Of a stretch of 64,000 nucleotides of DNA, positions 3,504-19,201 are shown piece after piece; the first letter of the stretch is position 1, and every line of letters starts with the position of its first letter. The stretch lies in the IMG/VR virus record IMGVR_UViG_3300020721_000006, one strand, 5' to 3'. The position numbers were made by a program, and so were the translations under genes. The notes below the pieces were generated by a model that was not told the DNA's origin, did not search any database, and was given only the letters and a program-made list of their open reading frames with translations. This DNA comes from a virus (Duplodnaviria > Heunggongvirae > Uroviricota > Caudoviricetes).

Positions 3504-3560
3504 GATAAATAGATATAGGTCGCGGGATTGCAGTCCCCACCTATTCTAAAGCCTTGGAGG
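3504..3560 (+). promoter_or_regulatory. late-promoter-like GATAAATA box (3504-3511) plus conserved hairpin ATAGGT-CGCGGGATTGCAGTCCCC-ACCTAT (3515-3544) and GGAGG RBS (3556-3560) preceding GIY-YIG gene
   Basis: same architecture found upstream of the other four GIY-YIG genes, with compensatory stem changes. Confidence 0.45.
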
Positions 3561-3568
3561 TCATCAGC

Positions 3569-4237
3569 ATGAATATTTATCAACCTTATACGTATCTATT
3601 AAAATTTAAACCAACTGGGCAAGTTTATTATGGAGTTTCGTATATTAATCATTATAGAGGAAAAGCACATCCATCTCAATTATGGAATACCTACTTTTCA
3701 TCATCTAAATATGTTAAAGAATTAATAAAAATTTATGGACAGGAAATGTTTGATGTGCAAGTTAGAAAAGTATTTGTATGTAGAGAAGATGCAATTAAAT
3801 GGGAACATAAAGTTTTAAAAAATTTGATGCAAAAAACAATCCAATGTGGCTCAATAAAAGTAATGGTGGAAAACAATTTATATCTCAATTTGGTAGAATT
3901 GTCACAGATGAAACCCGAAAGAAAATAGGACTTGCAAATACCGGAAAACTAAACAAAAAGAAGGGAACAACACTTTCAGACGAAACTAGGAAAAAGATGT
4001 CAATAGCATCTACCGGAAGAAAACATTCAGATGAAACAAAGAGAAAGATATCTGAGTTCAATAAAGGAAAACATCAGGGTGATAAAAATCCATTTTATGG
4101 TAAAAAATCATACACCCGAATCAATTGCAAAAATGTCAGAATCTCACAAAGGACACATTCCATGGAATAAAGGAAAGCCTGCACCACTAATTTGTCGTGT
4201 TATAGATAAAAAAGAGATGTCTGTGTTAAAGGTGTAA
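3569..4237 (+). pseudogene. GIY-YIG / NUMOD3 homing endonuclease (Seg/I-TevI-like) split over three frames
   Basis: N-terminal IYQPYTY...YYG nuclease motif; C-terminal repeats of SDETRKKxSxAxTG and NPFYGKK (NUMOD3); needs -1 shift at A AAA AAT (3817-3823) and +1 shift in A6 run (4102-4107); true start ATG 3569 (ORF-track start 3554 is a TTG). Confidence 0.7.
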
Positions 4238-4331
4238 AAGACATCCAGAAAATTAAAAAAATGTCCTCATTGTAATTTTTCAAGTAGAGGGTTACGATGG
4301 GGAAATAACTGTGATAATTGTGTATATAAAA

Positions 4332-4859
4332 ATGGCGAAACTTATGAGTAAAATAGAAAATAGAATAGAAATATATGTAGATTTAGATGAAGTAGTAGCA
4401 AACTTTATGGGATATGCTCGCAAGTTCTTTGACAAACAACTTAAAGACGGTGATAAACTACTAGTGGATGAATGGAACAAATTAAGTAGTAATCCACACC
4501 TATTTAGAGATCTTGAAGTTAAAGATAACGCATACGAATTAATCGATTGGTTGAAAAAGTATCAACAAGAAACTGGATCAGAACTATATTTTCTAACTGC
4601 TATTCCATCAAAGAACACAGTGAAATTTGCTGCACAAGATAAAGTGTATTGGTGTAATAAATATTTTCCAGATATTCCAGTTATAATTGGTCCGTATAGC
4701 CATGATAAACATTTACAATGCAGTGGCAATCATTGTATACTGTTAGATGATAGATTAGATAACTGTACACAATGGCGCGAAGTCGGTGGCCGTGCTCATC
4801 AATATAAAACTTGGGAACAATGTAAAATTTGGTTAGAGCAAGAACTATTGAATAAATAG
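4332..4859 (+). CDS. 5'(3')-deoxyribonucleotidase-like HAD-family phosphatase
   Basis: motif I YVDLDEVVANF (DxDxV) near N-terminus and ILLDDR motif, as in NT5C-type nucleotidases; start could be 4311, 4332 or 4344. Confidence 0.55.
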   Translation: MAKLMSKIENRIEIYVDLDEVVANFMGYARKFFDKQLKDGDKLLVDEWNKLSSNPHLFRDLEVKDNAYELIDWLKKYQQETGSELYFLTAIPSKNTVKFAAQDKVYWCNKYFPDIPVIIGPYSHDKHLQCSGNHCILLDDRLDNCTQWREVGGRAHQYKTWEQCKIWLEQELLNK

Positions 4860-4867
4860 AATTTAAA

Positions 4868-4973
4868 ATTGCTTATTAATTAATTTATATGATAAATAAG
4901 TAATATTAAAGGAATAAAAAATTGCTTATTAATTAATTTATATGATAAATAAGTAATATTAAAGGAATAAAAA
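4868..4973 (+). repeat. perfect 2 x 53-bp tandem duplication carrying late-promoter-like GATAAATA box and AAAGGAATAAAAA RBS immediately upstream of the tail-fibre module
   Basis: copy 1 4868-4920, copy 2 4921-4973, identical; GATAAATA at 4891-4898 and 4944-4951; ATG at 4974. Confidence 0.9.
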
Positions 4974-5210
4974 ATGGCAACACAGATAGGAAATGGAAAC
5001 GTTCTTTTTGGTGATGGTAGTTCACAAACTTCGGCAACACCTACCGGAAATCCAGCAACTGGGCTTGGATTTGTCTATGAAAATTCACAATCTGTAACAC
5101 AAAATTACACAATGACTAGTGGTAAATCAGGTATGTCAACTGGTCCAATTACTTTTGGACCGGGAATAACAGTTACGATTCCTAGTGGCTCAAGATGGAT
5201 AGTATTATAA
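4974..5210 (+). CDS. small fibre-module protein (78 aa), Gly/Ser/Thr-rich
   Basis: ORF directly after late promoter/RBS; motif GNVLFGDGSSQTSATPTG typical of fibre N-termini. Confidence 0.45.
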   Translation: MATQIGNGNVLFGDGSSQTSATPTGNPATGLGFVYENSQSVTQNYTMTSGKSGMSTGPITFGPGITVTIPSGSRWIVL

Positions 5211-5220
5211 AGGATAACAT

Positions 5221-6489
5221 ATGGCAATTATAAACGCAAGTAATACTAGTGGATTAGTTCAAACTGGTGATGCTAGTGGAGTACTTGCCCTTCAAACTGG
5301 CGGAACTACTGCGGTCACTATAGATGCTTCAGGCAACGTGGGGATTGGGACGAGTAGTCCTACACAAAAGCTAGATGTCACAGGAAACATCAACACTTCA
5401 GGTTCATTAAATAGCATCAACACTTTTGGATTCAAAAACAGAATTATCAATGGTGGCATGGCTATAGACCAGCGTAATGCTGGGGCGCAGATAACAGCAG
5501 CTAACTTGGCTCCCAGCGCATACATGGTTGACCGTTGGTCATACTCTGCTTCACAGGCCGCAAAATTTACGGCGCAGCAAAATGCTGGGGCTGTAACAAC
5601 TCCAGTTGGGTTCCCAAATTATCTTGGCATGACAGTTGCTTCGGCATTTACCGTTGGCGCGGGTGATTGGTTTTGTATTGGTCAATCAGTAGAAGGGTTT
5701 AATTTTGCAGACTTGGCATGGGGGACGGCAAGCGCAAAAACCGTAACTCTTTCATTTGTTGTTTATAGCTCTTTAACAGGTACATTCGGGGGCGCACTTC
5801 GCAACAACGCAACGAACCGTTCATATCCATTTACATATTCAATACCGACAGCAAACACTTGGACCACAATATCGGTGACCATTGCTGGCGATACAAGCGG
5901 AACTTGGGTTGGGGCGACAAACGGACTTGGTGTTTCTCTCTTTTTCGGTCTTGGCGTAGGTACTACTTACAGTGGCACGGCAGGAGCTTGGGCGGCAACA
6001 AACTATATATCAGTTACTGGCGCAGTTTCCGTAGTCGGCACATCAGGTGCTACGTTCTACATCACAGGTGTTCAACTTGAGAAAGGATCAACCGCCACGA
6101 GCTTTGACTATAGGCCGTATGGGACTGAGTTGGCGTTGTGTCAGAGATATTTTGAAAAGTCTTTTAATGTAAGTGTAGCCCCCGCCAACGGTACAACGGC
6201 TACGACTTTAATTGATAATGCTGGTTGTTTTGCTAGCATGGCAATAAATGGCCAAGTTGATGGTGGGTTTATATCGTTTAAAGTATCAAAGAGGGCAGTC
6301 CCTACTTTAACTATTTATGGAAATAATAGTGGGTATTGGAACTATTATAGTGGTGGAGCATCTTTATGGGGGGCAAATGCGTATTCCCCTGGTACTTTGG
6401 GTGAAAATGGACATGCTTTTTCGCAACAAGTTGTAAATGCCATAGCTATTGCTGTTAGAGGGCATTGGACTGCTTCAGCGGAGCTATAA
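5221..6489 (+). CDS. tail fibre protein
   Basis: N-terminal [22 protein letters not shown] motif shared with ORFs 6858 and 9798; G/S/T/A-rich beta-rich composition. Confidence 0.7.
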   Translation: MAIINASNTSGLVQTGDASGVLALQTGGTTAVTIDASGNVGIGTSSPTQKLDVTGNINTSGSLNSINTFGFKNRIINGGMAIDQRNAGAQITAANLAPSAYMVDRWSYSASQAAKFTAQQNAGAVTTPVGFPNYLGMTVASAFTVGAGDWFCIGQSVEGFNFADLAWGTASAKTVTLSFVVYSSLTGTFGGALRNNATNRSYPFTYSIPTANTWTTISVTIAGDTSGTWVGATNGLGVSLFFGLGVGTTYSGTAGAWAATNYISVTGAVSVVGTSGATFYITGVQLEKGSTATSFDYRPYGTELALCQRYFEKSFNVSVAPANGTTATTLIDNAGCFASMAINGQVDGGFISFKVSKRAVPTLTIYGNNSGYWNYYSGGASLWGANAYSPGTLGENGHAFSQQVVNAIAIAVRGHWTASAEL

Positions 6490-6492
6490 AAA

Positions 6493-6861
6493 ATGTACAA
6501 ACTAACTAACAACACATCAATAATCCGCATAGAAGATAACGCTTGTATCCCAAACGATCCAACCAACACCGATTACCAAGCCTACCTAGCGTGGCTAGAA
6601 GAGGGCAACACACCCGAACCTGCTGATATACCACCTGTAGTTATACCCAACATCTCAATGCGACAAGCGAGATTAGCACTATTAGCTGATGGCTTACTTG
6701 ATGATATTGAAGCTGCTATGTCTACACCTGAGTATAAAATTTGGTGGGAATATTCAACGGTTGTTGAGCGTAATAATCCGCTTGTTGAGCAAGTGCTAGC
6801 AATCCTCGGCAAAAGTGATGCTGAGATAGATCAAATGTTTATAGGAGCATCACAGTTATGA
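6493..6861 (+). CDS. hypothetical protein in fibre module (122 aa)
   Basis: ORF tightly packed between fibre genes (overlaps next by 4 nt). Confidence 0.45.
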
Positions 6862-8471
6862 GTTCTATCGTAGTTGCTGGAGATACCAGCGGTTCAATCA
6901 CATTACAAGCGCCTGCAGTAGCAGGGAGTACGGTTTTAACTTTGCCCACAACTTCAGCAACTTTAATCACGGACAGCTCGGGAATATTGAACATAGGCTC
7001 AGGTCAAGTCTATAAAGATGCTTCAGGCAACGTGGGGATTGGGGTTATACCTAGCCCAGCCCAGGGAGGGTTATTACAATTAGGTAACACATCACAATAT
7101 GGTTTTCAAGGGCCAATAGGTTATTTAAACGCAAATATATACTTTGGAACTGGGGCTTTTAGGTACTCAATAACAGGCGCAGCTTCGTCATATCAACAAA
7201 ATTCAGGGTATCATATTTGGAGTTACGCGGCTTCAGGTACAGCCAATGCAGCGGTTTCTTTAACAGAAGCTATGCGCATCGACTCCTCCGGCAACGTGGG
7301 GATTGGGACGAGTAGTCCTAGCACTTACGCTGGAAAAGTAGTTTCTTACAATAATACAAATGGTTTAGCGTCATTTACAGCGTTGTCTGGTTTAGCGGCT
7401 ACCAGTGTTATAGAAATACAAGATGGTGCAGCAACTCCAAACAGATGGTGGTTATTATCTGGATTAGGAACAACAACAGATGGAACTTTTTCTATTTATG
7501 ATAAAAGGCAAAGTGTTTCAAGATTAGCCATCGACTCCAGCGGCAACGTGGGGATTGGGACTACACCATCAGGAACATACAAACTTGAAGTAACAGGAGC
7601 TATAGGTAGTTCAACCACCATAAATGCAACAACCGGATATAAGGTTGCAGGTGCAGCTACATCAGGACAATATCTACGAGGTAATGGCACTAACTTTGTA
7701 TCTTCTGCCATACAAGCAGCTGATGTACCCACACTTAATCAAAATACTACAGGCAATGCCGCCAATGTGACGGGAACTGTTGCCGTAGGTAACGGTGGAA
7801 CTGGGTCAACAACATTGCCCACTAATAACGTGCTACTAGGTAACGGCACATCAGCATTACAAGCGGTCGCCCCAAGTACATCGGGCAACGTATTAACATC
7901 AAATGGGACAACATGGCAATCAATCGCGCCAAGTGGTGGCGGTGGCGGTTTCACCAGTATGGTCGTCTTCACAGCATCAGGTACATGGACTATTCCTGCT
8001 GGCATTACTAAGGCGAAAGTGACTATCCAAGGGGCTGGCGGTGGTGGTGGTGGTGGTTTTGGTTATGAAAACGGCGGCGGCGGCGGTGCGACTATAAAAT
8101 ATGTAACTGGATTGACTCCAGGTGGAACTGTTGTTTGTACGATTGGCGCTGGTGGCTCTGGTGCCGTCGCTTGTGGTGCGAATGGTGGTGCGGGCGGGAC
8201 TACATCTTTTGGCGCTTATTGCTCTGTAACTGGCGGAGGAGCAGGGCTTTCGTCAGGAGTCACAGGGTCAGGAGGCGTAGGAACAGGCGGGAATTGGAAC
8301 CTTACTGGATCAGGTTTATTTTCAGGTTATTATATCAACACACCGCCCTCTTTATCCTATATTTCTGATGGCACTGTGGCACGAGGTAGTGGTGGCGTTG
8401 CTGGTAATTATTGTGGAGTACCTACACCAGCTACTGCTGGAATGTCAGGTTTTATCATGATTGAATATTAA
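6858..8471 (+). CDS. tail fibre protein with four SGNVGIGT repeats and glycine-rich C-terminal region
   Basis: repeats DASGNVGIG / DSSGNVGIG x4; poly-Gly tracts [17 protein letters not shown] near C-terminus. Confidence 0.7.
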
Positions 8472-8484
8472 GGAGAAAATATAA

Positions 8485-8736
8485 ATGAAAGCATTAATAA
8501 GCCCTATTGAACCTGTAAACAATTCTGACGGCACAACGGGCTATCGAGTTGCACAAGTTGAAGAAATAACTTTTGATGTAGCTGAACCATTATATTGGCT
8601 TGACTGCGATGCCAACGTGATAGCAGATATTTACTATTTTGATACTACATCTAATAATATATTAATTAAGCCTGTTATTGCTCATACTAATGTATCAAAC
8701 ACACAACCAATATCAACTGGAACACAAGCATTCTAA
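8485..8736 (+). CDS. hypothetical protein (83 aa)
   Basis: RBS AAGGAGAAAAT upstream; TAATG coupling to next gene. Confidence 0.45.
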   Translation: MKALISPIEPVNNSDGTTGYRVAQVEEITFDVAEPLYWLDCDANVIADIYYFDTTSNNILIKPVIAHTNVSNTQPISTGTQAF

Positions 8737-9020
8737 TGGATATTTTGATACTGCCCCCAGCGCATAGCCTAACTTATGACGGTGCAACACTAAACATTTA
8801 TCACGCCAACAAGGGTGAGGGATTGCCGCATCATGTTCACACGTTTAGTCACGCAACCATGTGTCATTCAGGGTCAATCATTGTCCGTAAGGAGGGCAAA
8901 GAAATGATAGTTACTAAAGAAACTCAACCTATAAATCTTACTGCTAATGAATGGCATGAAATTGAAGCATTAGAAGATAATACAGTGTTCTGTAATATGT
9001 TCTCTGAAGGAAAATATTAA
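8736..9020 (+). CDS. small cupin-fold protein
   Basis: His-rich metal-site-like motif GLPHHVHTFSHATMCHSGSII within a ~90 aa beta-rich protein. Confidence 0.4.
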   Translation: MDILILPPAHSLTYDGATLNIYHANKGEGLPHHVHTFSHATMCHSGSIIVRKEGKEMIVTKETQPINLTANEWHEIEALEDNTVFCNMFSEGKY

Positions 9021-9036
9021 GGGCATGGTGATGAGT

Positions 9037-9201
9037 ATGCTAGATAAACTTGAAGCTTCAGCTAGAGCCGCGTCATGTATTTCATATTTAACTAGCGTGG
9101 GGTTAGTGACTGGAAGTCTCTGGGAGTTTTTAAACACTAACGCCGCTGGCTTTGGTGCAGAAAAACTAAAAGAGTTACTTGCTCTTGTGAAGAGTAAATA
9201 A
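9037..9201 (+). CDS. small protein (~54 aa), one hydrophobic segment
   Basis: ORF below track cutoff; stop TAA 9199-9201 overlaps ATG of next gene. Confidence 0.3.
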   Translation: MLDKLEASARAASCISYLTSVGLVTGSLWEFLNTNAAGFGAEKLKELLALVKSK

Positions 9202-9614
9202 TGACTAACGAAAAAATGAAATTAGCTTTTGAGAGAATGGCTGGCATACCTGATGCTTGGACTAACCCAACACTTATGCAATCTCGTAATGGATTTTTTG
9301 CTACATCTGATAAAATATTTAAAGAAAATATTCAAAATATTAACAATGCATTAGAAATTGTTTCTAACATAGGTGGTAAAACATTTGATTGGACCGATGA
9401 CTATATTACCGAAAAAGGCGGTGTAGATGGTTATTTTGTTAATAAATCAGACTTTGGAGTAATAGCGCAAGATGTTCAATCAGTATTTCCACTAGCAGTA
9501 AGAACAAGAACTGATGGAACATTAGCAGTAGATTATATAAAGCTTTGTGCATTAGCATTTGCTGCAATTAGAGAATTAAAAAATGAAGTTGATAATTTAA
9601 GGAAAACAATATGA
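9201..9614 (+). CDS. stand-alone peptidase-S74-like intramolecular chaperone domain protein
   Basis: SDKIFKENIQNI ... GKTFDW ... GVIAQDVQSVFPLAV ... VDYIKL ... ELKNEVDNL pattern matching C-terminal auto-chaperone domain of fibre 9798. Confidence 0.5.
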   Translation: MTNEKMKLAFERMAGIPDAWTNPTLMQSRNGFFATSDKIFKENIQNINNALEIVSNIGGKTFDWTDDYITEKGGVDGYFVNKSDFGVIAQDVQSVFPLAVRTRTDGTLAVDYIKLCALAFAAIRELKNEVDNLRKTI

Positions 9615-9672
9615 TATTAAATGGATCTAATGGAATAAGTGGATTACCAGTCCCATTAGCACTTAGTCAAGG

Positions 9673-9798
9673 TGGAACAGGATGTTGACTATCACTGGTT
9701 GGAGCAAAACTGAAGCAAGATTAGTAAAAGCAATCCAAGAACTCAAAGCCATCATCGACACGCAAAACGCTCGTATAGAAGCACTGGAGGCTAAATAA
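9673..9798 (+). CDS. small coiled-coil protein (41 aa)
   Basis: ORF with TAATG overlap to fibre gene 9798; heptad-like KAIQELKAIIDTQNARIEALEAK. Confidence 0.3.
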   Translation, partial: WNRMLTITGWSKTEARLVKAIQELKAIIDTQNARIEALEAK

Positions 9799-10970
9799 TG
9801 GCTATCACGCTAAATGGAACAACTGGAATCACAACTCCAGGTTTATTAAATACAGGTACAGAAACTATTGTTGACCTTACAACATCGGGCAATACAATAC
9901 TAGGTGATGCTTCAACAGATACTCTCAATGTAGGTAATGGTGGTATTGTCAAAGATGCGTCAGGCAACGTGGGGATTGGGACGAGTTCGCCAACAACAAA
10001 ACTTACAGTCGCAGGTGCAATAACTATCACGGGTGGATTTGCGCTCAGAGGCTCATATAGTGCTGGTGCAATAAACTCAAACTTTGCGGCTGGAGATGGA
10101 GCTTTAACATCAAACACCACAGGCTACTCCAACACAGCTAGTGGGTTGGGCGCACTCCAGTACAACACCACAGGCTACTTCAACACAGCTAGTGGGGTGG
10201 GCGCACTCAACAACAACACCACAGGCATCTCCAACACAGCTAGTGGGTTGGGCGCACTCCAGTTCAACACCACGGGCAACTACAACACAGCTAGTGGGCA
10301 GAACGCACTCAACGCCAACACCACAGGCTACTCCAACACAGCTAGTGGGTTGGGCACACTCCAGTACAACACCACAGGCTACAACAACACAGCTAGTGGG
10401 CAGAACGCACTCTATACCAACACCACAGGCAGCTACAACACAGCCAGTGGGTGGAATGCGCTCCTATCAAACACCACAGGCAACTACAACACAGCTAGTG
10501 GGGCGGGCGCACTCAACAGCAACACCACGGGGTCAGGGAACTCAGCGTTTAATCCAATAAATTCAGCAGGTACTTATGCACCTGTGTTTAACCCAACCGT
10601 AGAAAACAATCGGTTCTGTATGGGTTCAACTGGGGTGACTAATGCCTATATTCAAGTCGCTTGGACAGTCGTATCTGACGCACGTGATAAAACGAATTTT
10701 GCTCCAGTCCCCCACGGCTTAGAGTTTGTTAATCAACTTAAACCTACTGCCTATCAGTTTAAGGAAAATAGAGAAACTGATATACCAACTGGTATTGTTA
10801 GATATGGTTTTAAGGCACAGGATATACTTGCTTTGGAAGGTGACACTCCTGTCATCATTGACAATGAGGATTTAGATAAACTTAGATTCAACTCTGATAG
10901 TCTTATCCCTGTATTGGTCAATGCAATCAAAGAACTCACTGCTCGTCTTGAGCTTTTGGAAGGAAAATAA
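9798..10970 (+). CDS. tail fibre protein with ~10 tandem NTTGxxNTASGxGAL repeats and C-terminal S74-type auto-chaperone domain
   Basis: N-terminal [17 protein letters not shown]; C-terminal SDARDKTNF ... VPHGLEFVNQLKP ... KAQDILALEG ... ELTARLELLE. Confidence 0.75.
   Translation: MAITLNGTTGITTPGLLNTGTETIVDLTTSGNTILGDASTDTLNVGNGGIVKDASGNVGIGTSSPTTKLTVAGAITITGGFALRGSYSAGAINSNFAAGDGALTSNTTGYSNTASGLGALQYNTTGYFNTASGVGALNNNTTGISNTASGLGALQFNTTGNYNTASGQNALNANTTGYSNTASGLGTLQYNTTGYNNTASGQNALYTNTTGSYNTASGWNALLSNTTGNYNTASGAGALNSNTTGSGNSAFNPINSAGTYAPVFNPTVENNRFCMGSTGVTNAYIQVAWTVVSDARDKTNFAPVPHGLEFVNQLKPTAYQFKENRETDIPTGIVRYGFKAQDILALEGDTPVIIDNEDLDKLRFNSDSLIPVLVNAIKELTARLELLEGK
10110..10535 (+). repeat. 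intragenic tandem repeats (~57-nt period, ~7-8 copies) inside fibre gene 9798
   Basis: repeated acaccacaggctac(t/a)(c/a)caacacagctagtggg...gcactc units visible directly. Confidence 0.7.
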
Positions 10971-10971
10971 A

Positions 10972-11172
10972 ATGAATGAAATCACACCAGCACAACAATA
11001 TACATCAACTATGGACTCAGTAAACCTAATTAATGGTGTTAAGCCTGCGATGATGACTGATGTGGAATGGGCAGATTGTATCAAAAGAAACAAAGAACAC
11101 ATTGAAATTATGTTAGCTAAAGATTTCTGGACAACTGAAGATTTAACTCCTTTCAAGGACGCTGTGAAATGA
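10972..11172 (+). CDS. hypothetical protein (66 aa)
   Basis: start at ATG 10972 just after fibre stop; ATGA overlap with next gene at 11169. Confidence 0.45.
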   Translation: MNEITPAQQYTSTMDSVNLINGVKPAMMTDVEWADCIKRNKEHIEIMLAKDFWTTEDLTPFKDAVK

Positions 11173-11498
11173 TTACAAACACTTGGAACATCACAGCACT
11201 AAATTGCAACCCTGATGTAAATGGTATGCTTGATTATGTTGTGACGGCTCATTGGACTCTCAGCGCAACTGATGGTACTTACACAGGCTCAGTTTACGGT
11301 ACAGCATCTTTTGAAGTTGATCCTGATAAGCCTGACTATACACCTTATGCTGACTTAACTTTAGATGAAGTTATTGCTTGGACCAAAGCAGCATTGGGTG
11401 AAGAACAAGTAGCATCATATGAAGCAAACGTAGCAAGTCAAATTGAATCTCAAATAAATCCAACAATCGTAACTCCACCATTACCTTGGACTGTATAA
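11169..11498 (+). CDS. hypothetical protein (109 aa)
   Basis: coupled ORF. Confidence 0.5.
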   Translation: MITNTWNITALNCNPDVNGMLDYVVTAHWTLSATDGTYTGSVYGTASFEVDPDKPDYTPYADLTLDEVIAWTKAALGEEQVASYEANVASQIESQINPTIVTPPLPWTV

Positions 11499-11653
11499 TG
11501 ATAAACTTAAATTTAACAGTACAAGAAATAAACTTAATCCTACAAGCACTAGGTCAAGCACCATATATTCAAGTAGCAGAGTTAGTGGAAAAAATAAAAG
11601 CACAAGCTGTGCCTCAAGTCAAGGCGTTGCCAAAAGAAGAAACTCCAGAATGA
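11498..11653 (+). CDS. small protein (51 aa)
   Basis: TAATG overlap upstream and ATGA overlap downstream; below track cutoff. Confidence 0.4.
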   Translation: MINLNLTVQEINLILQALGQAPYIQVAELVEKIKAQAVPQVKALPKEETPE

Positions 11654-11868
11654 AAATCGACTGGACTTCAGCATCAACTAAAGGTATAGATGAGACTGAG
11701 TCTGACGCTATTGACGGTTGGTGGGAAACACCTACTGGTGCTGAGTTTGGTGCAGAATATCCAGATTTTAGACTATACTTAGATGGGGTTGTTAAAAATG
11801 ATCAACAACAAATCCAAGATTATATCGATGCTTGTCTAGCAGTTAAAGCAAAATATCCAAAGACATAA
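11650..11868 (+). CDS. hypothetical acidic protein (72 aa)
   Basis: last gene of fibre operon, followed by terminator. Confidence 0.5.
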   Translation: MKIDWTSASTKGIDETESDAIDGWWETPTGAEFGAEYPDFRLYLDGVVKNDQQQIQDYIDACLAVKAKYPKT

Positions 11869-11870
11869 AT

Positions 11871-11911
11871 AAAAAACCCCTGAAGTAGATTAGGCTACTA
11901 TAGGGGTTTTA
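11871..11911. terminator. rho-independent terminator (bidirectional-looking)
   Basis: AAAAAACCCCT-loop-AGGGGTTTT hairpin with A-run upstream and T-run downstream, between convergent transcription units. Confidence 0.55.
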
Positions 11912-11913
11912 AT

Positions 11914-12036
11914 TTATAATACATTCCACCAAATCGGAACTGAACCAGTCCCAACTATCATGAAATAACATAATGTTACAAATAATGATAATCCAATAAA
12001 TGCAGTTAAATTTTCAAAGGTTATCAAATCTTTCAT
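11914..12036 (-). CDS. small hydrophobic peptide (40 aa)
   Basis: AAGGAGGA RBS 5 nt upstream of ATG; single predicted TM. Confidence 0.35.
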   Translation of the reverse strand: MKDLITFENLTAFIGLSLFVTLCYFMIVGTGSVPIWWNVL

Positions 12037-12048
12037 AGGCATCCTCCT

Positions 12049-12147
12049 TCAAATAATTGTAAATAAAAATATGGTTACTGATGATACAAATACTACACTA
12101 CAAATCGCTACAACTAAGGTGTTTACATCTATATGTGGATATTTCAT
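12049..12147 (-). CDS. small hydrophobic peptide (32 aa)
   Basis: GGGAGGA RBS; single TM. Confidence 0.3.
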   Translation of the reverse strand: MKYPHIDVNTLVVAICSVVFVSSVTIFLFTII

Positions 12148-12179
12148 TTTTTCCTCCCATACATATAATATATAGCTTT

Positions 12180-12208
12180 ATTATACACCAGTTTATACAA
12201 AAAATCAA
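12180..12208 (-). promoter_or_regulatory. sigma70-like promoter TTGATT-N17-TATAAT (minus strand)
   Basis: -35 at 12203-12208, -10 at 12180-12185. Confidence 0.45.
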
Positions 12209-12298
12209 TTAAAAACACATACTTATAAGGAAAAACACTATCAATAAATAGTAAACAATTATAGATATAATACTTCTATTGTAGTTTAATATAAAACA

Positions 12299-12327
12299 TT
12301 GACATATAATTTCAATAATGGTATAAT
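12299..12327 (+). promoter_or_regulatory. consensus sigma70-like promoter TTGACA-N17-TATAAT
   Basis: -35 12299-12304, -10 12322-12327, perfect consensus with 17-nt spacer. Confidence 0.6.
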
Positions 12328-12360
12328 AATATACATAATGTTATAACTGTGAGTGAATTA

Positions 12361-14181
12361 ATGAAAAAGAAGAAAAATAAAATAGCAAAACCAAAACAAA
12401 TTGATGCTAATCAATTAAGAAACACTGCTGTAGCAATGCATCAACAAAACAAATTAATAGAAGCAGAAAAATTATACAAACAGCTATTAACTATATTACC
12501 AAATGATACTACTTGTTGGACTAATTTAGGAACACTAGAATACCAACGTGGCAACTTTAAAAATGCAATTCAATTCATTGATAAATCATTAAAGATAGAT
12601 CCAAACCAACCATTTGCACATAACAATCGTGGCAACATTCTTAAAGATCTTAATCTAGTCAATGAAGCATTAGAAAGTTATAGCAATGGTATAGCAATCA
12701 ATGATAAACTTCCAGAACTCTTATACAACCGTGCTATTACATTACATGAATTAGGCAGAGTTGATGAAGCATTGGAATCATACACCAAAACTATAGAAAT
12801 TGATAATAATAATATCAAAGCATATATAAATCTTGGTAACATTCTTCATGAATTAAACAGATCACACGAAGCTATAGCAAACTATAATAAAGTAAAAGAA
12901 CTACAACCAGATTTTGCATTAGCTTATGCAAATTGTGGCATTGTTTACCAACATATCAATGATGACGAAAAAGCATTAGAGAACTATACCAAAGCTACCG
13001 CAATTGAACCTATGTCATCAGTATATTCTAATCGTGGTAATATCTATCAAAATCAACATAAACTATTAGAAGCAATAGAAGAATATGAAAAAGCAATCAA
13101 AATAGATCCAACATTTCATACTGCACACGGTAACAAAGCTAATGCCCTATTATCAGTAAGAAGACTAGAAGAAGCTGAGAAATCATATAATACAGCATTA
13201 ACTATTGAACCAGACTTTGCTGATGCACTTTGGAATAAATCTATACTTCTATTATTATATGGACAATATGAAGAAGGTTTCAAATTGTTTGAAAATAGAT
13301 GGCGTTCTGCACTTAAGAACTATTATCGTAGATATGATAAACCATTGTGGAACGGACAATCATTACAAGATAAAACTATTTACATATACCCAGAACAAGG
13401 ATTTGGTGACTTTATACAATTTTGTAGATACCTACCAATGTTTGATAACATGAATTGTAAAGTAATAGTAGAAGTTCCAATACTGCTTCGAGATCTAGTG
13501 AAAACAATAAAATGCAATGCAACATTTCTAGATTCTGAAACATTTGACAAAACTATACCATTTGATTATCATTGTCCTATAATGAGTCTACCAGGTGGAT
13601 TTAAAACCACATTAGATACTATACCAGCTGATATGCCATACTTATATCCAGTTGAATCTAAACAAAAGTACTGGGCAGATAAATTAGGACCAAAAACAAA
13701 AACAAGAGTGGGATTAGTATGGTCTGGTGGATTTAGACCAGAACAACCAGAAACCTGGGCAGCTAACAGTAGAAGAAATATTAAATTAGCAAATCTAGAA
13801 TGCTTTAAAGATATAGATGTAGAATTCTATAGTATTCAAAAGGGCGCAACACCTGAAAAAGAATTAACAGATTTGGTTGCACAGAATTGGGATGGTCCAG
13901 TTATTACTAGTTATACCGATGAATTAATAGACTTTGCTGATACCGCTGCTTTCATAAGCAACTTGGATTTAGTAATATCAGTTGACACATCTACTGCCCA
14001 TGTAGCAGCTGCTATCGGTAAACCAGTATGGATATTTAATAGATTTGATGCTTGTTGGCGATGGTTACTTAACAGAACTGATAGTCCATGGTATCCAACT
14101 GTTACCTTGTTCAATCAAAAAGTTACCAATGAATGGGATGAAGTTATACAAGAAATACACGAGAAACTTAAAACATTATGA
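12361..14181 (+). CDS. TPR-repeat protein fused to glycosyltransferase-family-9-like (heptosyltransferase-fold) C-terminal domain
   Basis: N-terminal half consists of ~34-aa TPR repeats; C-terminal VDTSTAHVAAAIGKPVWIF motif typical of GT9 transferases; start more likely ATG 12361 than GTG 12349. Confidence 0.75.
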   Translation: MKKKKNKIAKPKQIDANQLRNTAVAMHQQNKLIEAEKLYKQLLTILPNDTTCWTNLGTLEYQRGNFKNAIQFIDKSLKIDPNQPFAHNNRGNILKDLNLVNEALESYSNGIAINDKLPELLYNRAITLHELGRVDEALESYTKTIEIDNNNIKAYINLGNILHELNRSHEAIANYNKVKELQPDFALAYANCGIVYQHINDDEKALENYTKATAIEPMSSVYSNRGNIYQNQHKLLEAIEEYEKAIKIDPTFHTAHGNKANALLSVRRLEEAEKSYNTALTIEPDFADALWNKSILLLLYGQYEEGFKLFENRWRSALKNYYRRYDKPLWNGQSLQDKTIYIYPEQGFGDFIQFCRYLPMFDNMNCKVIVEVPILLRDLVKTIKCNATFLDSETFDKTIPFDYHCPIMSLPGGFKTTLDTIPADMPYLYPVESKQKYWADKLGPKTKTRVGLVWSGGFRPEQPETWAANSRRNIKLANLECFKDIDVEFYSIQKGATPEKELTDLVAQNWDGPVITSYTDELIDFADTAAFISNLDLVISVDTSTAHVAAAIGKPVWIFNRFDACWRWLLNRTDSPWYPTVTLFNQKVTNEWDEVIQEIHEKLKTL

Positions 14182-14426
14182 CACAGAATACATTACCAGA
14201 TTTATATAACATATCAGTTGAAGAACTTCCAGAAGACATTAAAGAAAAGTTATATGATATGCTATTTGATAATGAATATAACAATTATGAGGAATTCGAT
14301 GATTTAATAAAAAAGGAACTTGATGAATATTTGTATAGCTTTACGTCTGCTTTATATTTAGAAGGGTACCAATTAACATTTAAATCTGAAGCTCATTATA
14401 CCTTTTTCCTACTCAAATGGATGTAA
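14178..14426 (+). CDS. WF-family small protein (C-terminal YTFFLLKWM)
   Basis: member of expanded family with C-terminal FxxExxxxWFxLRWS signature. Confidence 0.5.
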   Translation: MTQNTLPDLYNISVEELPEDIKEKLYDMLFDNEYNNYEEFDDLIKKELDEYLYSFTSALYLEGYQLTFKSEAHYTFFLLKWM

Positions 14427-14427
14427 T

Positions 14428-14664
14428 ATGTATAAAGTAATGATACCAGAAACAAACAAAATTGGTTACGAATGGACTAAGTTACATTTAATGAAGGCGT
14501 GGTGCAAAGAAACATATGGATATGCTAAGGTAGATAACAAATATATATGGCGTAGTAGAATGGAATATCATGTTGATTGGGGGAAGAATTCGGTTGATAA
14601 AATTGCGTGCTTCTATTTCCAAAAAGAAGAACACGCTACATGGTTTGTTTTACGATGGACTTGA
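14428..14664 (+). CDS. WF-family small protein (AWCKETYG ... ATWFVLRWT)
   Basis: both family motifs present. Confidence 0.6.
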   Translation: MYKVMIPETNKIGYEWTKLHLMKAWCKETYGYAKVDNKYIWRSRMEYHVDWGKNSVDKIACFYFQKEEHATWFVLRWT

Positions 14665-14870
14665 ATACTGCCGTAGTTGATTTAGAAAAATATGATAAGT
14701 TTAGATATAGAGATATCAATTCATATAATGGATTTGCCAGATTAAATGCTACCTATATTTTTAAAAAGAAGTTCAAGATTACCGGTGAACGATTTGTAGC
14801 ATTTAATGAATTAGAACTAACATTTGAAACTGAACAAGCCAAAACTTGGTTCTTATTAAACTTGCATTAA
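14655..14870 (+). CDS. WF-family-like small protein (KTWFLLNLH)
   Basis: start moved to internal ATG 14655 overlapping previous stop. Confidence 0.4.
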   Translation: MDLNTAVVDLEKYDKFRYRDINSYNGFARLNATYIFKKKFKITGERFVAFNELELTFETEQAKTWFLLNLH

Positions 14871-15301
14871 TGTTTTGATACTTTATAAAAAGCAAGATTA
14901 CCAGTCACATCATGATGCATTTTCCAAGTTGGTAATAATATTTTGGCTAATCTGCTATATAACGATTGTCTATTTGAATCTTCGGCAGAAAAAATAACAC
15001 TGTTGACTTCATGTGTATTTAAAAAATCTTTCATTATAGATACAACAGTTGAGAATACAGATTTTTCACTACCAGTACCAGTTTTGCTATAAACCTTTTT
15101 ACCTTTTACTATTTGATAAAATGCAATCTTCCACGATTCACCATAATTAAATGCATCAAAACCATATTTAAGTTTCTTTGAAAAGAATCTGCCAGGTTGA
15201 ACTATTACAAATTCCGCTACTGCTGATTTATTATCATTAACAATCCATTTATATGGAACAGTTGAATCAAATGATTCACTTAGTATTTCAATTATCTTCA
15301 T
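14867..15301 (-). CDS. hypothetical protein with CTS-like N-terminus MKIIEILSES
   Basis: 144-aa ORF on opposite strand inside the rightward array; GGAG RBS. Confidence 0.55.
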   Translation of the reverse strand: MKIIEILSESFDSTVPYKWIVNDNKSAVAEFVIVQPGRFFSKKLKYGFDAFNYGESWKIAFYQIVKGKKVYSKTGTGSEKSVFSTVVSIMKDFLNTHEVNSVIFSAEDSNRQSLYSRLAKILLPTWKMHHDVTGNLAFYKVSKH

Positions 15302-15332
15302 TAATATTTCTCCGATAGTGTATTTATTGGTC

Positions 15333-15361
15333 TTGACAAATATTAGTAATTAACATATAAT
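15333..15361 (+). promoter_or_regulatory. consensus promoter TTGACA-N17-TATAAT
   Basis: -35 15333-15338, -10 15356-15361; ATG 15369 lies at predicted TSS (leaderless-type). Confidence 0.55.
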
Positions 15362-15368
15362 AAAGAAT

Positions 15369-15575
15369 ATGAATACTATAACATTAAACCAAAAACAAAC
15401 TAGAATTTTCTGGAGTGACATTGTTTTTAACAAACAAGTAACTATACACTCTATTGACAAATACATTTATGACACATATAATATCACTAAACGTAGATGG
15501 ACAACCCATAGAACGTTAGAACTAACTTTTGAAGATGAAAAATATATATCCCTCTTTCTTGTGAGGTGGTCATGA
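15369..15575 (+). CDS. WF-family small protein (ISLFLVRWS)
   Basis: family C-terminal motif. Confidence 0.55.
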   Translation: MNTITLNQKQTRIFWSDIVFNKQVTIHSIDKYIYDTYNITKRRWTTHRTLELTFEDEKYISLFLVRWS

Positions 15576-15778
15576 ACGAAAAAGAAAATACATTTAATAT
15601 ATTAGCTAATAAACCATTATTAATTACTAGTTCATTATGCTACGTTGGTATACATAGTTGGAGTAAATGGAACGACCCACACACACGAGCAGTTGCCGGA
15701 TATCAAACTATATTTGAGACAATTCAAGAAAAAACTTGTAGACATTGTAATTTAAGAAAATATAAGAAGTTTAAGTAG
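15566..15778 (+). CDS. hypothetical small protein (70 aa), Cys-containing
   Basis: ORF only. Confidence 0.4.
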   Translation: MVMNEKENTFNILANKPLLITSSLCYVGIHSWSKWNDPHTRAVAGYQTIFETIQEKTCRHCNLRKYKKFK

Positions 15779-15848
15779 AGGGTTTAATGAAAATAGTTCA
15801 AATTCTAGAAGAAGATGATATACTACACCAACTGATTATTGTAGACCA

Positions 15849-16229
15849 TTGATTTTAACTACATTTTCACCACAAAGTGATGTTTATTCATTTTATAATA
15901 CCTATTCTGGTACACCAGAGAACAATGCAAAATGGATAAGAGTAGACCAAAAGTTTGGTGACTTCTGGTTTGGTAAGCCGGTAAAAGAATTAGTTATGGT
16001 GAACCCATATGAATTTATTCGTGGTGAAATACCTAAAAGCCATTTCTATGGTAAAACACGTAAAGATATAGAAAACGAGTATGATGAATATTTAAGTTCT
16101 AATGCAATGCCATACGGAAAATACCAAGAATATACTTTTGCAGAAATAAAAGCGTATGATATATCTTATTTTTCATGGGCTACTGATAAAGAAATAATAA
16201 AGGTTATTGATTATGATAATAAAGACTAA
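15849..16229 (+). CDS. hypothetical protein (126 aa)
   Basis: ORF only. Confidence 0.45.
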   Translation: MILTTFSPQSDVYSFYNTYSGTPENNAKWIRVDQKFGDFWFGKPVKELVMVNPYEFIRGEIPKSHFYGKTRKDIENEYDEYLSSNAMPYGKYQEYTFAEIKAYDISYFSWATDKEIIKVIDYDNKD

Positions 16230-16452
16230 GGTTATTAATGGTTCATACTTCCCTTTCTTAGCAGAAATGCGTGAGATCGAAGATAACGATTATATTGTTA
16301 TCAGACAATGGTGTATAGACCAATTTGGAATACCATCTAAAGCTGGCAGAGGGTTAGATACAACTGCAAGATGGTTGGAACCAATTTTTAGTAATGGTTT
16401 TAGATTTAAGAACGAAGCAGACCGTGTTTGGTTTGTAATGAGGTGGACATGA
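16207..16452 (+). CDS. WF-family small protein (QWCIDQFG ... RVWFVMRWT)
   Basis: both motifs. Confidence 0.55.
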   Translation: MIMIIKTKVINGSYFPFLAEMREIEDNDYIVIRQWCIDQFGIPSKAGRGLDTTARWLEPIFSNGFRFKNEADRVWFVMRWT

Positions 16453-16673
16453 AAATAGAGAAACTTGATAACAATCCTTACCCATATATTATTAGATTTA
16501 GAACCAACTGTGCTCTGACACAATGGGAAGAAATGTATAATTGGTGCACAGAAACGTTTGGCACCGCATACGCAACAGAAGGTATCTGGATTAAACAATT
16601 GAATGGCATACGATTCAAACATAAAGAACATGCTACCTGGTTTGTTTTACGATGGTCTGGTAATGACATATAA
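16449..16673 (+). CDS. WF-family small protein (NWCTETFG ... ATWFVLRWS)
   Basis: start at ATG 16449 (ATGA overlap); ORF-track N-terminal extension MVCNEVD is overlap artefact. Confidence 0.6.
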   Translation: MKIEKLDNNPYPYIIRFRTNCALTQWEEMYNWCTETFGTAYATEGIWIKQLNGIRFKHKEHATWFVLRWSGNDI

Positions 16674-16869
16674 TATAATATTAAATTCAGAACAAACTAA
16701 AAAGTTTTGGAAAGAAGTCTGTGAGAAAGTAAATTGGGAAATGAGTGAGCTTGACCAGTACTTATATGACAAGTATACTATTGTAAAACGAACATGGCAA
16801 TCTAATCGAACTTTACGTCTAACATTAGAAGATGAGAAATATATAACTTGGTTTAGCTTATACTTATGA
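16663..16869 (+). CDS. WF-family-like small protein (ITWFSLYL)
   Basis: internal start chosen to avoid long overlap. Confidence 0.45.
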   Translation: MTYNIILNSEQTKKFWKEVCEKVNWEMSELDQYLYDKYTIVKRTWQSNRTLRLTLEDEKYITWFSLYL

Positions 16870-17138
16870 ATGATTGTGAATTATATTTAAATGAAGAAAT
16901 GTGGGAAAGATTAAGAACATATCTTAATTACCTTGATCCTACTGATGAAATTATGTATTCTAACGGAAATCATAGACAACAATGGAAACGAGAAATTAAG
17001 AAACATTTTAAAGGAAAATACTATGAACATACTAAGGCATCAAGTCGTAAATTTTGGGGTTATATAATGTTTGATAAACCAGAACATAAAACATGGTTTA
17101 TTATCAAAATATCAGCAGAGGAAATGTATGATCATTGA
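16866..17138 (+). CDS. WF-family variant (FDKPEHKTWFIIKIS)
   Basis: ATGA overlap with previous gene; same subtype as minus-strand member ending KPEHKTWFIFKWS. Confidence 0.5.
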   Translation: MNDCELYLNEEMWERLRTYLNYLDPTDEIMYSNGNHRQQWKREIKKHFKGKYYEHTKASSRKFWGYIMFDKPEHKTWFIIKISAEEMYDH

Positions 17139-17367
17139 AAAACCAGGATATGTATTTACTTATAGTATTCAATTTGATTGGTTGTATCCTCATTTAGGGG
17201 AAATTTATGAATGGTGTGAAGATACTTTTGGTGAAGCATTTAATAACTCAGTTCATCAAGCAGTACATAATCCAGCAAAATGGACTAAACAAAGGGGTGG
17301 TGTAAGGTTTACAAAATTAGAACACGCTGAATGGTTTGTGTTACGGTGGAGTGGTATTGACATATAA
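17128..17367 (+). CDS. WF-family small protein (EWCEDTFG ... AEWFVLRWS)
   Basis: both motifs. Confidence 0.55.
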   Translation: MIIEKPGYVFTYSIQFDWLYPHLGEIYEWCEDTFGEAFNNSVHQAVHNPAKWTKQRGGVRFTKLEHAEWFVLRWSGIDI

Positions 17368-17413
17368 TACAAAACACTGTATAATACAGAATAATTAAAA
17401 TATAAGGAATATT

Positions 17414-17923
17414 ATGAATAAAGAAAAATACGTATTTTTTTGGGGCGGAGTTTTCAGCCAATGGTACAAATCTAACTTTACTTTAGATGGAATTACATTT
17501 AATACTGCTGAGCAGTTCATGATGTATCAAAGGGCCATGCTTTTTGAAGATACCGACATTGCTAAACAAATTTTAAAATGCAATGATCCTAAGAAACAGA
17601 AAGAATTAGGAAGAAAAGTAAAGAACTTTGAAATGTCAAAATGGAATGAACATTGTCTTCAATATGTATTCCGTGGTAATCATGCCAAATTTGACCAAAA
17701 CAAACGATTATATGATATGCTAATGAATACTGCTCCTGCACTATTAGTTGAAGCATCACCATTTGATCGGGTATGGGGGATAGGATTAGATGAGAAAGCT
17801 GCCAGTAAAACACCTGAAAGTGAATGGCCAGGCACAAATTGGTTGGGTAAAACATTGACAAATCTTCGTGATCACTTTGAGCATGAGGAATTAATTGAAC
17901 AATGGGAAAAAACTAATGAATAA
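17414..17923 (+). CDS. NADAR-domain protein (YbiA-like, DUF1768)
   Basis: FSQWY ... FNTAEQFMMYQRAMLF ... KELGRKVKNF ... LLVEASPFDRVWGIGL pattern characteristic of NADAR family. Confidence 0.65.
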   Translation: MNKEKYVFFWGGVFSQWYKSNFTLDGITFNTAEQFMMYQRAMLFEDTDIAKQILKCNDPKKQKELGRKVKNFEMSKWNEHCLQYVFRGNHAKFDQNKRLYDMLMNTAPALLVEASPFDRVWGIGLDEKAASKTPESEWPGTNWLGKTLTNLRDHFEHEELIEQWEKTNE

Positions 17924-18167
17924 ACTAATGCTACCATGTGGTGGAACTGCATACTTTGATTATGATAGTGGGTGTAGTTATATATGTTCAACTTGTTATG
18001 CTACTATTGGTAGTATCGGTCAATCACAATCATGTAAAGATGCTGCTCAAATGTATGAGAATTGGCAAGCACTCGGTGGTGGTGGATGGGATTACAAGTT
18101 AGGTAAGCCAGAAAAATCATTAGATGGTGTTGAATATGATTTCAATCCAGATGATTATTTAAGTTGA
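17916..18167 (+). CDS. Cys-rich small protein (84 aa)
   Basis: CGG ... CSYICSTC motif; start at internal ATG overlapping NADAR stop. Confidence 0.4.
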   Translation: MNKLMLPCGGTAYFDYDSGCSYICSTCYATIGSIGQSQSCKDAAQMYENWQALGGGGWDYKLGKPEKSLDGVEYDFNPDDYLS

Positions 18168-18728
18168 TTAATAGAAATTTGGATTACCAATATATAAAAT
18201 CATAGGCATTAATGTATTCTGGTGTTCTTTTAAATAAGTTTCATTGGATTCCATAATAGTAATAGATGTTGGTCCAGCATGACCAGCATCGCTACTAGCA
18301 TATATCCATTCTGCTCTAATTTTGTCTATATCTGGATAATCTCCATTTTGATCCACCACAGTAAATCTTTTAGAATTACGTTGTAAAAATCGTAATAGCC
18401 ACTGTAATCCTTCACTGGTCAATTGCTCATTTGATGAAAATATTACTTTTTTACCTAATACCCCAGTAATAAATGCAATTAGTGCAGTAATTCCACCAAC
18501 TATATTAGCCCGATTACGCATTCCATGTAAAAAATCACCAGACATTAAAATGTAAACTGTGATTTTATCTCCTTTACTAAAGAAGTATAATGTAGCTTCA
18601 CCTGATATGAACTTGTGAACATCTTCACCATCAATGGTACCAATCTTTTTGCTATGTAATAGAATTTGGTCATCTGGCATGGTTAAATCTAATGCAGAAT
18701 GTGCGTAATCAATTTCAAAAATTTTCAT
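18168..18728 (-). CDS. hypothetical protein (186 aa) with CTS-like N-terminus MKIFEIDYAHS
   Basis: isolated minus-strand ORF. Confidence 0.55.
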   Translation of the reverse strand: MKIFEIDYAHSALDLTMPDDQILLHSKKIGTIDGEDVHKFISGEATLYFFSKGDKITVYILMSGDFLHGMRNRANIVGGITALIAFITGVLGKKVIFSSNEQLTSEGLQWLLRFLQRNSKRFTVVDQNGDYPDIDKIRAEWIYASSDAGHAGPTSITIMESNETYLKEHQNTLMPMILYIGNPNFY

Positions 18729-18743
18729 ATATGTATTTAGTAG

Positions 18744-18772
18744 TTGACAGTCTCAAAAAAATATACTATAAT
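18744..18772 (+). promoter_or_regulatory. consensus promoter TTGACA-N17-TATAAT
   Basis: -35 18744-18749, -10 18767-18772. Confidence 0.55.
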
Positions 18773-18803
18773 ATAATCTCAATAACAAACTTAGGAAATA
18801 TAA

Positions 18804-18932
18804 ATGGTTATCGGTGTAATTGATATAATTGGTGATGTAATTGGAACTTTGATATTAGCAGGAACTATTTGGTTCTTCTATCCAACGCTAAAAAATATGT
18901 TTAACGAAATTAGAAACTCATATAAGGATTAA
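18804..18932 (+). CDS. small membrane peptide (42 aa)
   Basis: AGGAAATATAA RBS; one TM (VIGTLILAGTIWFFY). Confidence 0.4.
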   Translation: MVIGVIDIIGDVIGTLILAGTIWFFYPTLKNMFNEIRNSYKD

Positions 18933-18934
18933 AA

Positions 18935-19201
18935 ATGAAAAGATATAATGGTGCACACGGATACCCAGATATGGTTGAGGCAAATGACGGACATTGGGTA
19001 ACGTATGAATCATATTCGTTAGCATTACTAGATGCTAATAAAAGTTCTGAAAGATATTGGGCATCAACTTGTACTAGTGATGATAAGATTAGGGCAGAAT
19101 ATGAAAATCAATTAGCAAAACAACAAACTATTATAACAGTATTATCTGCTATACTGTTTGTATTGGGTATGGGTGCTATATTTACATTTATAGGTGGTTA
19201 A
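18935..19201 (+). CDS. hypothetical protein with C-terminal TM anchor (88 aa)
   Basis: ORF; C-terminal IITVLSAILFVLGMGAIFTFIGG. Confidence 0.5.
   Translation: MKRYNGAHGYPDMVEANDGHWVTYESYSLALLDANKSSERYWASTCTSDDKIRAEYENQLAKQQTIITVLSAILFVLGMGAIFTFIGG

Follow-up and report, generated by a model that had tools for sequence, protein, structure and literature searches.

Tail fibres determine which cells a phage can attack. In the account of T-even adhesins given in PMC3157838, after Tetart et al. (1996, 1998), recombination occurs at conserved motifs, the His boxes of gp37 and the glycine-rich motifs of gp38. A second point of reference is provided by the mosaic adhesive trimer (MAT) fibres of Bdellovibrio bacteriovorus (Caulton et al. 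2024, PMC10769870), whose structures are intertwined trimeric beta-helices related to phage S74 fibres. A capping-loop motif with the consensus V-G-G/N-pi-x-x-P-x-x-x-L recurs on the edges of these beta-helices, and in one of the proteins, Bd2133, a beta-helix domain starts at G683, within the sequence T681-SGNLG (PMC10769870). Here we describe a cluster of three tail-fibre genes in 64,000 nt of the IMG/VR virus record IMGVR_UViG_3300020721_000006; we refer to this whole stretch of analysed DNA as the window. A short coding sequence, which we call the box, is repeated five times across the three genes and encodes a peptide shared with the MAT fibres. We think that the boxes are probably crossover points for homologous exchange of fibre modules, and that their identity is the footprint of that history.

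Five copies of one coding string

Every box contains an 18-nt core, GGCAACGTGGGGATTGGG, which reads GGC AAC GTG GGG ATT GGG in codons and encodes the peptide GNVGIG. The core is present five times in the window without a mismatch, always on the + strand and always in codon phase 0, in three open reading frames (ORFs) that we call genes 5221, 6858 and 9798 after their first positions (Table 1); their products match tail-fibre PHROGs or Peptidase_S74. Four of the five copies extend to an identical 20-mer, GGCAACGTGGGGATTGGGAC; the remaining copy, at 7026-7045, has two mismatches to it, both in the final two bases, and reads GIGV instead of GIGT. Shuffled sequence gave no match in 100 shuffles. 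A sequence-only reading of this DNA had reported an identical core repeated five times across three fibre genes, and we find the same, with 18 nt exact in all five copies, 20 nt exact in four, and positions that differ from the earlier ones by only 1-4 nt.

The codons used in the core are minority choices within the three fibre genes: GTG accounts for 14% of their valine codons, GGG for 20% and GGC for 25% of their glycine codons, and ATT for 34% of the isoleucine codons, with G or C at five of the six third positions. From codon usage alone, agreement of five copies at all six codons would have a probability of ~2e-12. The identity of the boxes thus exceeds chance, and codon usage cannot explain it. 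Exact tracts shared by pairs of copies are 18-31 nt long, and the flanks differ even in the synonymous codons of conserved residues, such as GAT or GAC for aspartate and TCA, TCC or AGC for serine. Across 4900-11700 the box is the sole dispersed repeat of note. These numbers bear directly on the simplest account, in which the boxes are young paralogous repeats left by recent duplication, or in which codon bias happened to favour the same string. The spacing of the copies in gene 6858, 84-88 codons, does resemble that of tandem modules, but outside the 18-31 nt the copies are essentially unalignable as DNA, and duplicates that old should also have lost their synonymous identity in the core. Together with the codon-usage probability, this makes duplication or chance a very improbable source of the boxes.

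Short identical repeats within fibre coding sequence also resemble, in outline, the repeats of a shufflon, where a site-specific recombinase (Rci, or an enzyme like Gin or Cin) would invert segments at the boxes and so switch fibre C-termini. All five copies are direct repeats, however, and there is no inverted copy even when up to three mismatches are allowed. No recombinase or invertase match was found among the proteins scanned, which covered 3554-11498 and selected ORFs elsewhere in the window; the nearest mobile-element genes are a split GIY-YIG endonuclease gene upstream of the fibres and a TnpB-like gene 45 kb away. Given the direct orientation and the lack of a recombinase match in that set, we therefore regard site-specific inversion as excluded for practical purposes.

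Junctions at the boxes in related fibre loci

If the boxes were crossover points, one might expect related phages to part company at them, and this is what we observe. One case is a sister variant, L412 (L numbers denote comparison loci), which matches window positions 6981-18970 at 99.95% identity over 11,990 nt and is unrelated upstream. Five of its six mismatches lie in 6983-7010 and identity reaches 100% at 7011; the switch from unrelated to shared sequence must therefore fall in 7011-7043, the perfectly shared tract that contains box 2. The L412 fibre gene encodes at least 891 aa, compared with 537 aa in the window, and carries two further boxes that use different codons. The same region behaves as a boundary from the other side: 6981-7043 recurs at 82-95% identity in more than ten contigs whose similarity to the window ends between 7039 and 7047, for the most part precisely at 7043, where the core finishes. 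In L239 the match to the window is confined to the segment that runs from box 3 to box 4 (7287-7563), with no detectable homology on either side. L014 and L038 have identical or nearly identical flanking genes and differ by replacement of the central segment of the fibre gene; the left junction of the replaced segment ends with a box, and the right junction begins at GCATGCGCATCGACTCCTCCGG, which encodes MRIDSSG and is the start of a degenerate box. Natural junctions at boxes were also found in the pairs L075/L099 and L095/L120. L319 has a similar N-terminal anchor (…LQTGGTTA.TIDAS) that continues into another body where the window has the box, and the L319 homologue of gene 5221 has no box and a different N-terminus.

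These cases are part of a wider tendency among ~320 fetched loci that we compared all against all. A looser test took high-scoring segment pairs (HSPs) that span 150 nt or more with an identity of 88% or higher. Of their ends, 6.3% fall no more than 10 nt from a box, whereas a position-shuffled null gives 1.9%, with a maximum of 3.4%. Under a stricter rule, which accepts a junction only where an HSP reaches 200 nt and 90% identity and is followed by less than 50% identity beyond its end, 15 of the 48 junctions lying within 400 nt of a box are no more than 15 nt from it, and box-to-box cassettes of 278-327 nt appear in three independent pairs. The sequence-only reading had proposed just such a comparison of fibre loci, and the breakpoints do coincide with the boxes; of the two findings that it said would refute it, divergent codons for the motif are seen across phages, as we describe below, but non-coinciding breakpoints are not.

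Base composition changes at the boxes as well. The window is AT-rich (30-32% G+C) while the fibre cluster reaches 43-47%, and the G+C content of third codon positions (GC3) ranges over 0.14-0.24 for background genes and over 0.31-0.43 for those of the fibres. Within genes 5221 and 9798, GC3 is 0.17 before the box and 0.40 after it (Fisher p = 1e-5); taken separately, the segments upstream of box 1 (5221-5331) and of box 5 (9798-9962) have values of 0.16 and 0.18, and in both genes GC3 is higher downstream. The anchors of these two genes appear to be resident sequence that has been joined, at the box, to imported distal parts.

We propose the following model. The box would be the one stretch that otherwise unrelated fibre modules have in common, and because it stands in the same codon phase in every gene, a crossover inside it would keep the reading frame and place the seam of the chimera at the edge of a module. 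What is exchanged in this way, between co-infecting phages and possibly also between paralogous genes of one genome, could be a single module, a distal tip or a proximal shaft. Resident N-terminal anchors would thereby have acquired distal parts from a fibre-gene pool where the coding variant seen here is frequent, and repair of heteroduplexes during such exchanges may add some local homogenization. We infer that the crossovers are guided by homology rather than merely selected afterwards, and that swaps of fibre modules change host range.

Several points weigh against this model. L319 and L416 show sharp switches in identity to the window that are not at boxes: both are 100% identical to it from ~6818, near a gene start, which in L319 takes in gene 6858, and ~84% identical over 5676-6817, with a second switch at ~5676, upstream of which L319 loses homology altogether. 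Selection for chimeras that fold, rather than homology-guided crossover, could enrich junctions at module edges, and our data fit either. BLAST alignments tend to run on through a conserved box, which can shift HSP ends towards its edges by as much as ~20 nt, and the events counted as HSP ends and junctions among the ~320 loci are not all independent. The support for the model is comparative and comes from natural sequences rather than from experiment, and the trimeric beta-helix fold that we suggest for the window's own proteins is carried over from solved homologues.

The peptide motif and its coding across phages

GNVGIG is the invariant core of a longer peptide motif. A profile built from 76 box segments and searched against the PDB matched 8OND at an E-value of 6.5e-22 with three repeats, followed by 8OML (1e-13), 8OL4 (6.5e-11), 8ON4 (1.9e-6) and 8OJN (1.3e-5); 8ONF was also matched and is grouped with 8OL4. 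The solved structures matched by this profile form one group only, the fibre tips of the Bdellovibrio MAT proteins. The product of gene 9798 reaches 8OND by itself, at an E-value of 0.011 and with the alignment over the box region; a phmmer search of the 537-aa fibre against the PDB gave no match, and there the box-segment profile alone succeeded. What the phage and MAT fibres share can be written as ...SGN[VL]G[IL]GT..P...L.V. In gene 6858 this motif recurs at module spacing along a single fibre (from codons 57, 145 and 229), and gene 9798 has the C-terminal S74 chaperone that marks the S74 subgroup of these fibres. The window's proteins thus probably adopt the trimeric beta-helix fold, with the motif at the edges of helices. 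We think that the GNVGIG peptide is conserved because it has a structural role in the fibre, where the motif marks the edges of modules. A literature search for GNVGIG, NVGIGT, GIGTSSP and similar strings found no paper on the peptide string or on a role for it in recombination junctions.

Conservation of a peptide leaves its codons free, and across phages this freedom is used. A degenerate scan of IMG/VR for GNVGIGT..P, which gives a codon-unbiased sample, returned 219 sites in 117 new contigs. The GNVGIG core of these sites is encoded by 156 distinct 18-mers, and every synonymous codon is used at every position. Only 10% of box pairs within the same contig are identical, and most contigs with three or more copies carry several codings. 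Universal conservation of the nucleotide string and homogenization of boxes within genomes as a general rule were both rejected on these figures, and a universal function of the string as DNA or RNA is therefore unlikely. The particular variant found in the window is nevertheless common. It is present in more than 120 IMG/VR contigs that range from 34 to 62% G+C, in 143 different contexts, and among motif-bearing contigs it occurs in 3 of 120 where 0.18 would be expected from codon frequencies, an over-representation of ~17-fold (P = 8e-4). Agreement at synonymous sites around the exact 18-mer decays over ~12 nt on each side, which would be the expected pattern for a short block that is retained while its flanks are exchanged, although repeated sampling of related lineages also contributes to this local identity. 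In bacterial and archaeal genomes the 18-mer was found in 90 stretches from many phyla, with unrelated flanks and against ~17 expected by chance; these occurrences indicate no host.

Could the string be maintained for what it is as a nucleic acid? A protein-binding or cleavage site, a hotspot signal, an RNA structure or a ribosome-pausing element, selected at the DNA or RNA level, would account both for minority codons being kept in five of five copies and for the ~17-fold excess. Such an element is quite improbable, however, given how many codings the same peptide tolerates, and given that the cellular 18-mers sit in unrelated flanks and that repeated sampling of related phage lineages can produce over-representation by itself. 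Rfam and tRNA scans of the window were empty, and the predicted folds of the five box contexts are unlike one another and not significant (z from -1.2 to +0.3); on these grounds we dropped the idea of an RNA element.

The sequence-only reading took the nucleotide identity of the boxes to imply ongoing gene conversion, and it also saw the boxes as patches of homology for shuffling fibre modules. The second of these proposals is supported by the breakpoints on boxes in related and co-occurring contigs; the first is not shown. Gene conversion here would mean short-patch, non-reciprocal copying among the five boxes of one genome, independent of other phages. It would explain why all six synonymous sites are identical in five copies whose flanks have diverged, why, in contigs that have an exact copy, 28% of the remaining copies match it exactly as well, and why the core (66-88% codon identity) is somewhat more uniform than the flanks (45-75%). 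But it sits poorly with the low share of identical pairs and the several codings of most multi-copy contigs, with the two extra, differently coded boxes of L412, and with the identity switches of close relatives away from the boxes at ~6818 and ~5676. Moreover, core and near flanks show a similar within-contig excess over GC-matched between-contig pairs, and in contigs with this variant the uniformity of the core is only moderately above that of the near flanks. We consider ongoing conversion unlikely, if clearly the strongest of the competing accounts, and the identity of the boxes is explained at least as well by a footprint of crossovers in a pool where this variant is common.

A stronger version of homologous exchange at the boxes is that the string itself is selected as a dedicated in-frame splice site for fibre modules, either because boxes of the common variant have more exchange partners, or because a phage nuclease or recombinase recognizes it. 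A candidate for such recognition would be the Seg-type homing endonuclease encoded just upstream of the cluster. We regard this as a long shot, but if it were true, fibre shuffling would be semi-programmed rather than a by-product of homology.

The fibre locus, its surroundings and described systems

The coordinates of the boxes, the fibre genes and the exchanged segments are collected in Table 1. The S74 domain of gene 9798 matches PF13884 (Peptidase_S74) at an E-value of 5.5e-10 and 39.8 bits, with a cut-off of 22, and gene 6858 has a weak match to Gly_rich_2; genes 5221 and 6858 are without Peptidase_S74, as in the non-S74 subgroup of MAT-type fibres. The exact 537-aa product of gene 6858 is present on 13 metagenomic contigs, the longest of 284 kb, so the window belongs to a very large phage-like genome. 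A megablast search of 4900-11200 against the INPHARED phages gave no match.

Table 1. Boxes, fibre genes and exchanged segments in the window
Feature	Position	Strand	Description
Box 1	5332..5351	+	exact 20-mer; codons 38-43 (GNVGIG) of gene 5221-6489
Box 2	7026..7043	+	exact 18-mer core; codons 57-62 of gene 6858-8471
Box 3	7290..7309	+	exact 20-mer; codons 145-150 of gene 6858-8471; left edge of exchanged cassette
Box 4	7542..7561	+	exact 20-mer; codons 229-234 of gene 6858-8471; right edge of box 3-box 4 cassette
Box 5	9963..9982	+	exact 20-mer; codons 56-61 of gene 9798-10970
Example box flanks			ATCGACTCCTCC upstream of one box and ACTACACCATCA downstream of another, with the core between them in a predicted in-frame chimera
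Fibre gene 1	5221..6489	+	422 aa; short N-terminal anchor, one box, distal domain; phrog_4492 tail fiber, E 3e-47
Fibre gene 2	6858..8471	+	537 aa; three boxes 84-88 codons apart, glycine-rich C-terminal domain; PHROG tail-fibre families
Fibre gene 3	9798..10970	+	390 aa; one box, 17-aa tandem repeats, C-terminal Peptidase_S74 chaperone
Extended conserved block	6981..7043	+	junction on both sides; 82-95% shared with many loci, L412 homology from 6981
Box 3-to-box 4 cassette	7287..7563	+	~84 codons; shared with L239, 94% overall, near 100% inside

Other variation in and around the fibre genes is of several kinds. The L416 version of the gene 6858 fibre (L416 3633-5258) is 541 aa long and mostly identical to the window's, with short differing patches between glycine runs; in the window these patches lie in the glycine-rich C-terminal domain (7990-8250), at GGGGACSISGCNSGGNGGGGG and GSGGNGGAVPGGAGG. 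Inside gene 9798, TRF reports a tandem array at 10113-10528 of 8.2 copies of a 51-nt unit, which encodes the 17-aa repeat NTTGxxNTASGxxALxx and has a GC3 of 0.71 that far exceeds the value elsewhere in the genome; L045 and L081 carry homologous arrays in different registers. Two further relatives, L317 and L318, show almost no differences from the window over the first 10.7 kb, and nearly all of their 45-54 differences come after 10782, mostly after 11115, so that variation between strains is concentrated at 10782-11383, just past the third fibre gene.

Between the second and third fibre genes, a stand-alone ORF of 137 aa (9201-9614) consists essentially of a Peptidase_S74 domain without a fibre body and has the genome-typical GC3 of 0.14. 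It could be the remnant of a fibre gene, or a chaperone acting in trans for the two fibres that have no S74 domain. Upstream of the cluster, a 26-nt direct repeat, GTAATATTAAAGGAATAAAAAAT(T/G)GC, stands at 4900-4925 and 4953-4978, 53 nt apart, and its second copy overlaps the ATG start of a small fibre-like gene (4974-5210); the repeat may represent duplication of a promoter or of a ribosome-binding region. The fibre genes are followed directly by a DUF7936 gene (11169-11498), which is common, at 80-84% nucleotide identity, to small and otherwise unrelated phage contigs of ~40% G+C (L014, L038, L060, L107, L109, L118 and L290). In L014 and L038, the two whose ORFs we read, it also lies directly 3' of a fibre gene, and this gene may travel with fibre genes. 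Also adjoining the cluster is a gene for a 610-aa protein (12349-14181) that has numerous TPR repeats and, at its C terminus, weakly matches glycosyltransferase family 9 (heptosyltransferase); it is conserved in the variants L412 and L413.

Mobile elements are found near the fibres and farther away. The endonuclease gene just upstream of the cluster (3554-4237) is SegE-like, with GIY-YIG and NUMOD3 domains, and is split over three overlapping reading frames, apparently by frameshifts; in L319 a gene called as SegE_GIY-YIG is in a different place. At 55296-56576 this phage-like genome has a TnpB-like ORF with a Cas12f1-like TNB domain and matches to transposase PHROGs, and L415 carries a related IS605-type pair (OrfB and a Y1 transposase) near its fibre cluster.

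What, then, does this locus add? It offers a natural example, with junctions at base level, of fibre-module exchange in uncultured environmental phages, and it ties the points of exchange to a motif known from crystal structures. Because chimeric fibres joined at the box are likely to fold, it may be of use in engineering host range, and it provides a compact signature by which fibre genes and module boundaries can be recognized in metagenomes. It also means that fibre loci are best read as mosaics whose parts have different histories.

The MAT fibres are the closest structural relatives. They carry the same repeated peptide, which in Bd2133 reads ERMRIDtSGNlGlGTaaPtsaLHV, and their architecture is that of the window's fibres: a proximal end that is conserved, then repeated fibre modules, then varied tips that may or may not include an S74 chaperone. 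They differ in being bacterial surface proteins of ~1,000 aa with signal peptides, whereas ours are products of phage genes, 390-537 aa long. Caulton et al. (2024, PMC10769870) treat mosaicism at the level of proteins, and the nucleotide identity of the motif and recombination junctions at it are not discussed there. The promoter-stem-loop cassettes of T4-type phages are similar in another respect, since short shared sequences flank exchangeable modules as recombination linkers, but in those phages these sequences are intergenic and regulatory (PMC2839356), and here they form a coding, in-frame linker.

The closest functional parallel is with the gp37/gp38 adhesins of T-even phages. There, in the account summarized in PMC3157838, short conserved and structurally required motifs separate variable segments that determine specificity, and here too natural breakpoints coincide with a conserved box; the patches that distinguish L416 from the window between glycine runs likewise recall the variable segments of gp38 between its glycine-rich motifs. 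The protein family and the motif, however, are unrelated, and a Pfam scan of our three fibre proteins found no gp37 or gp38 family, only the weak Gly_rich_2 match and Peptidase_S74. The units exchanged also differ, being whole beta-helix modules of ~85-110 aa, or entire distal or proximal parts, rather than the loops of a single domain, and the evidence from the window is comparative and comes from natural variants. The locus thus works like the T-even gp37/gp38 system but is not a member of it. The principle of exchange at conserved motifs has been known since the T-even work, and what we describe extends that picture rather than changing it, in a way that is unsurprising to a specialist.

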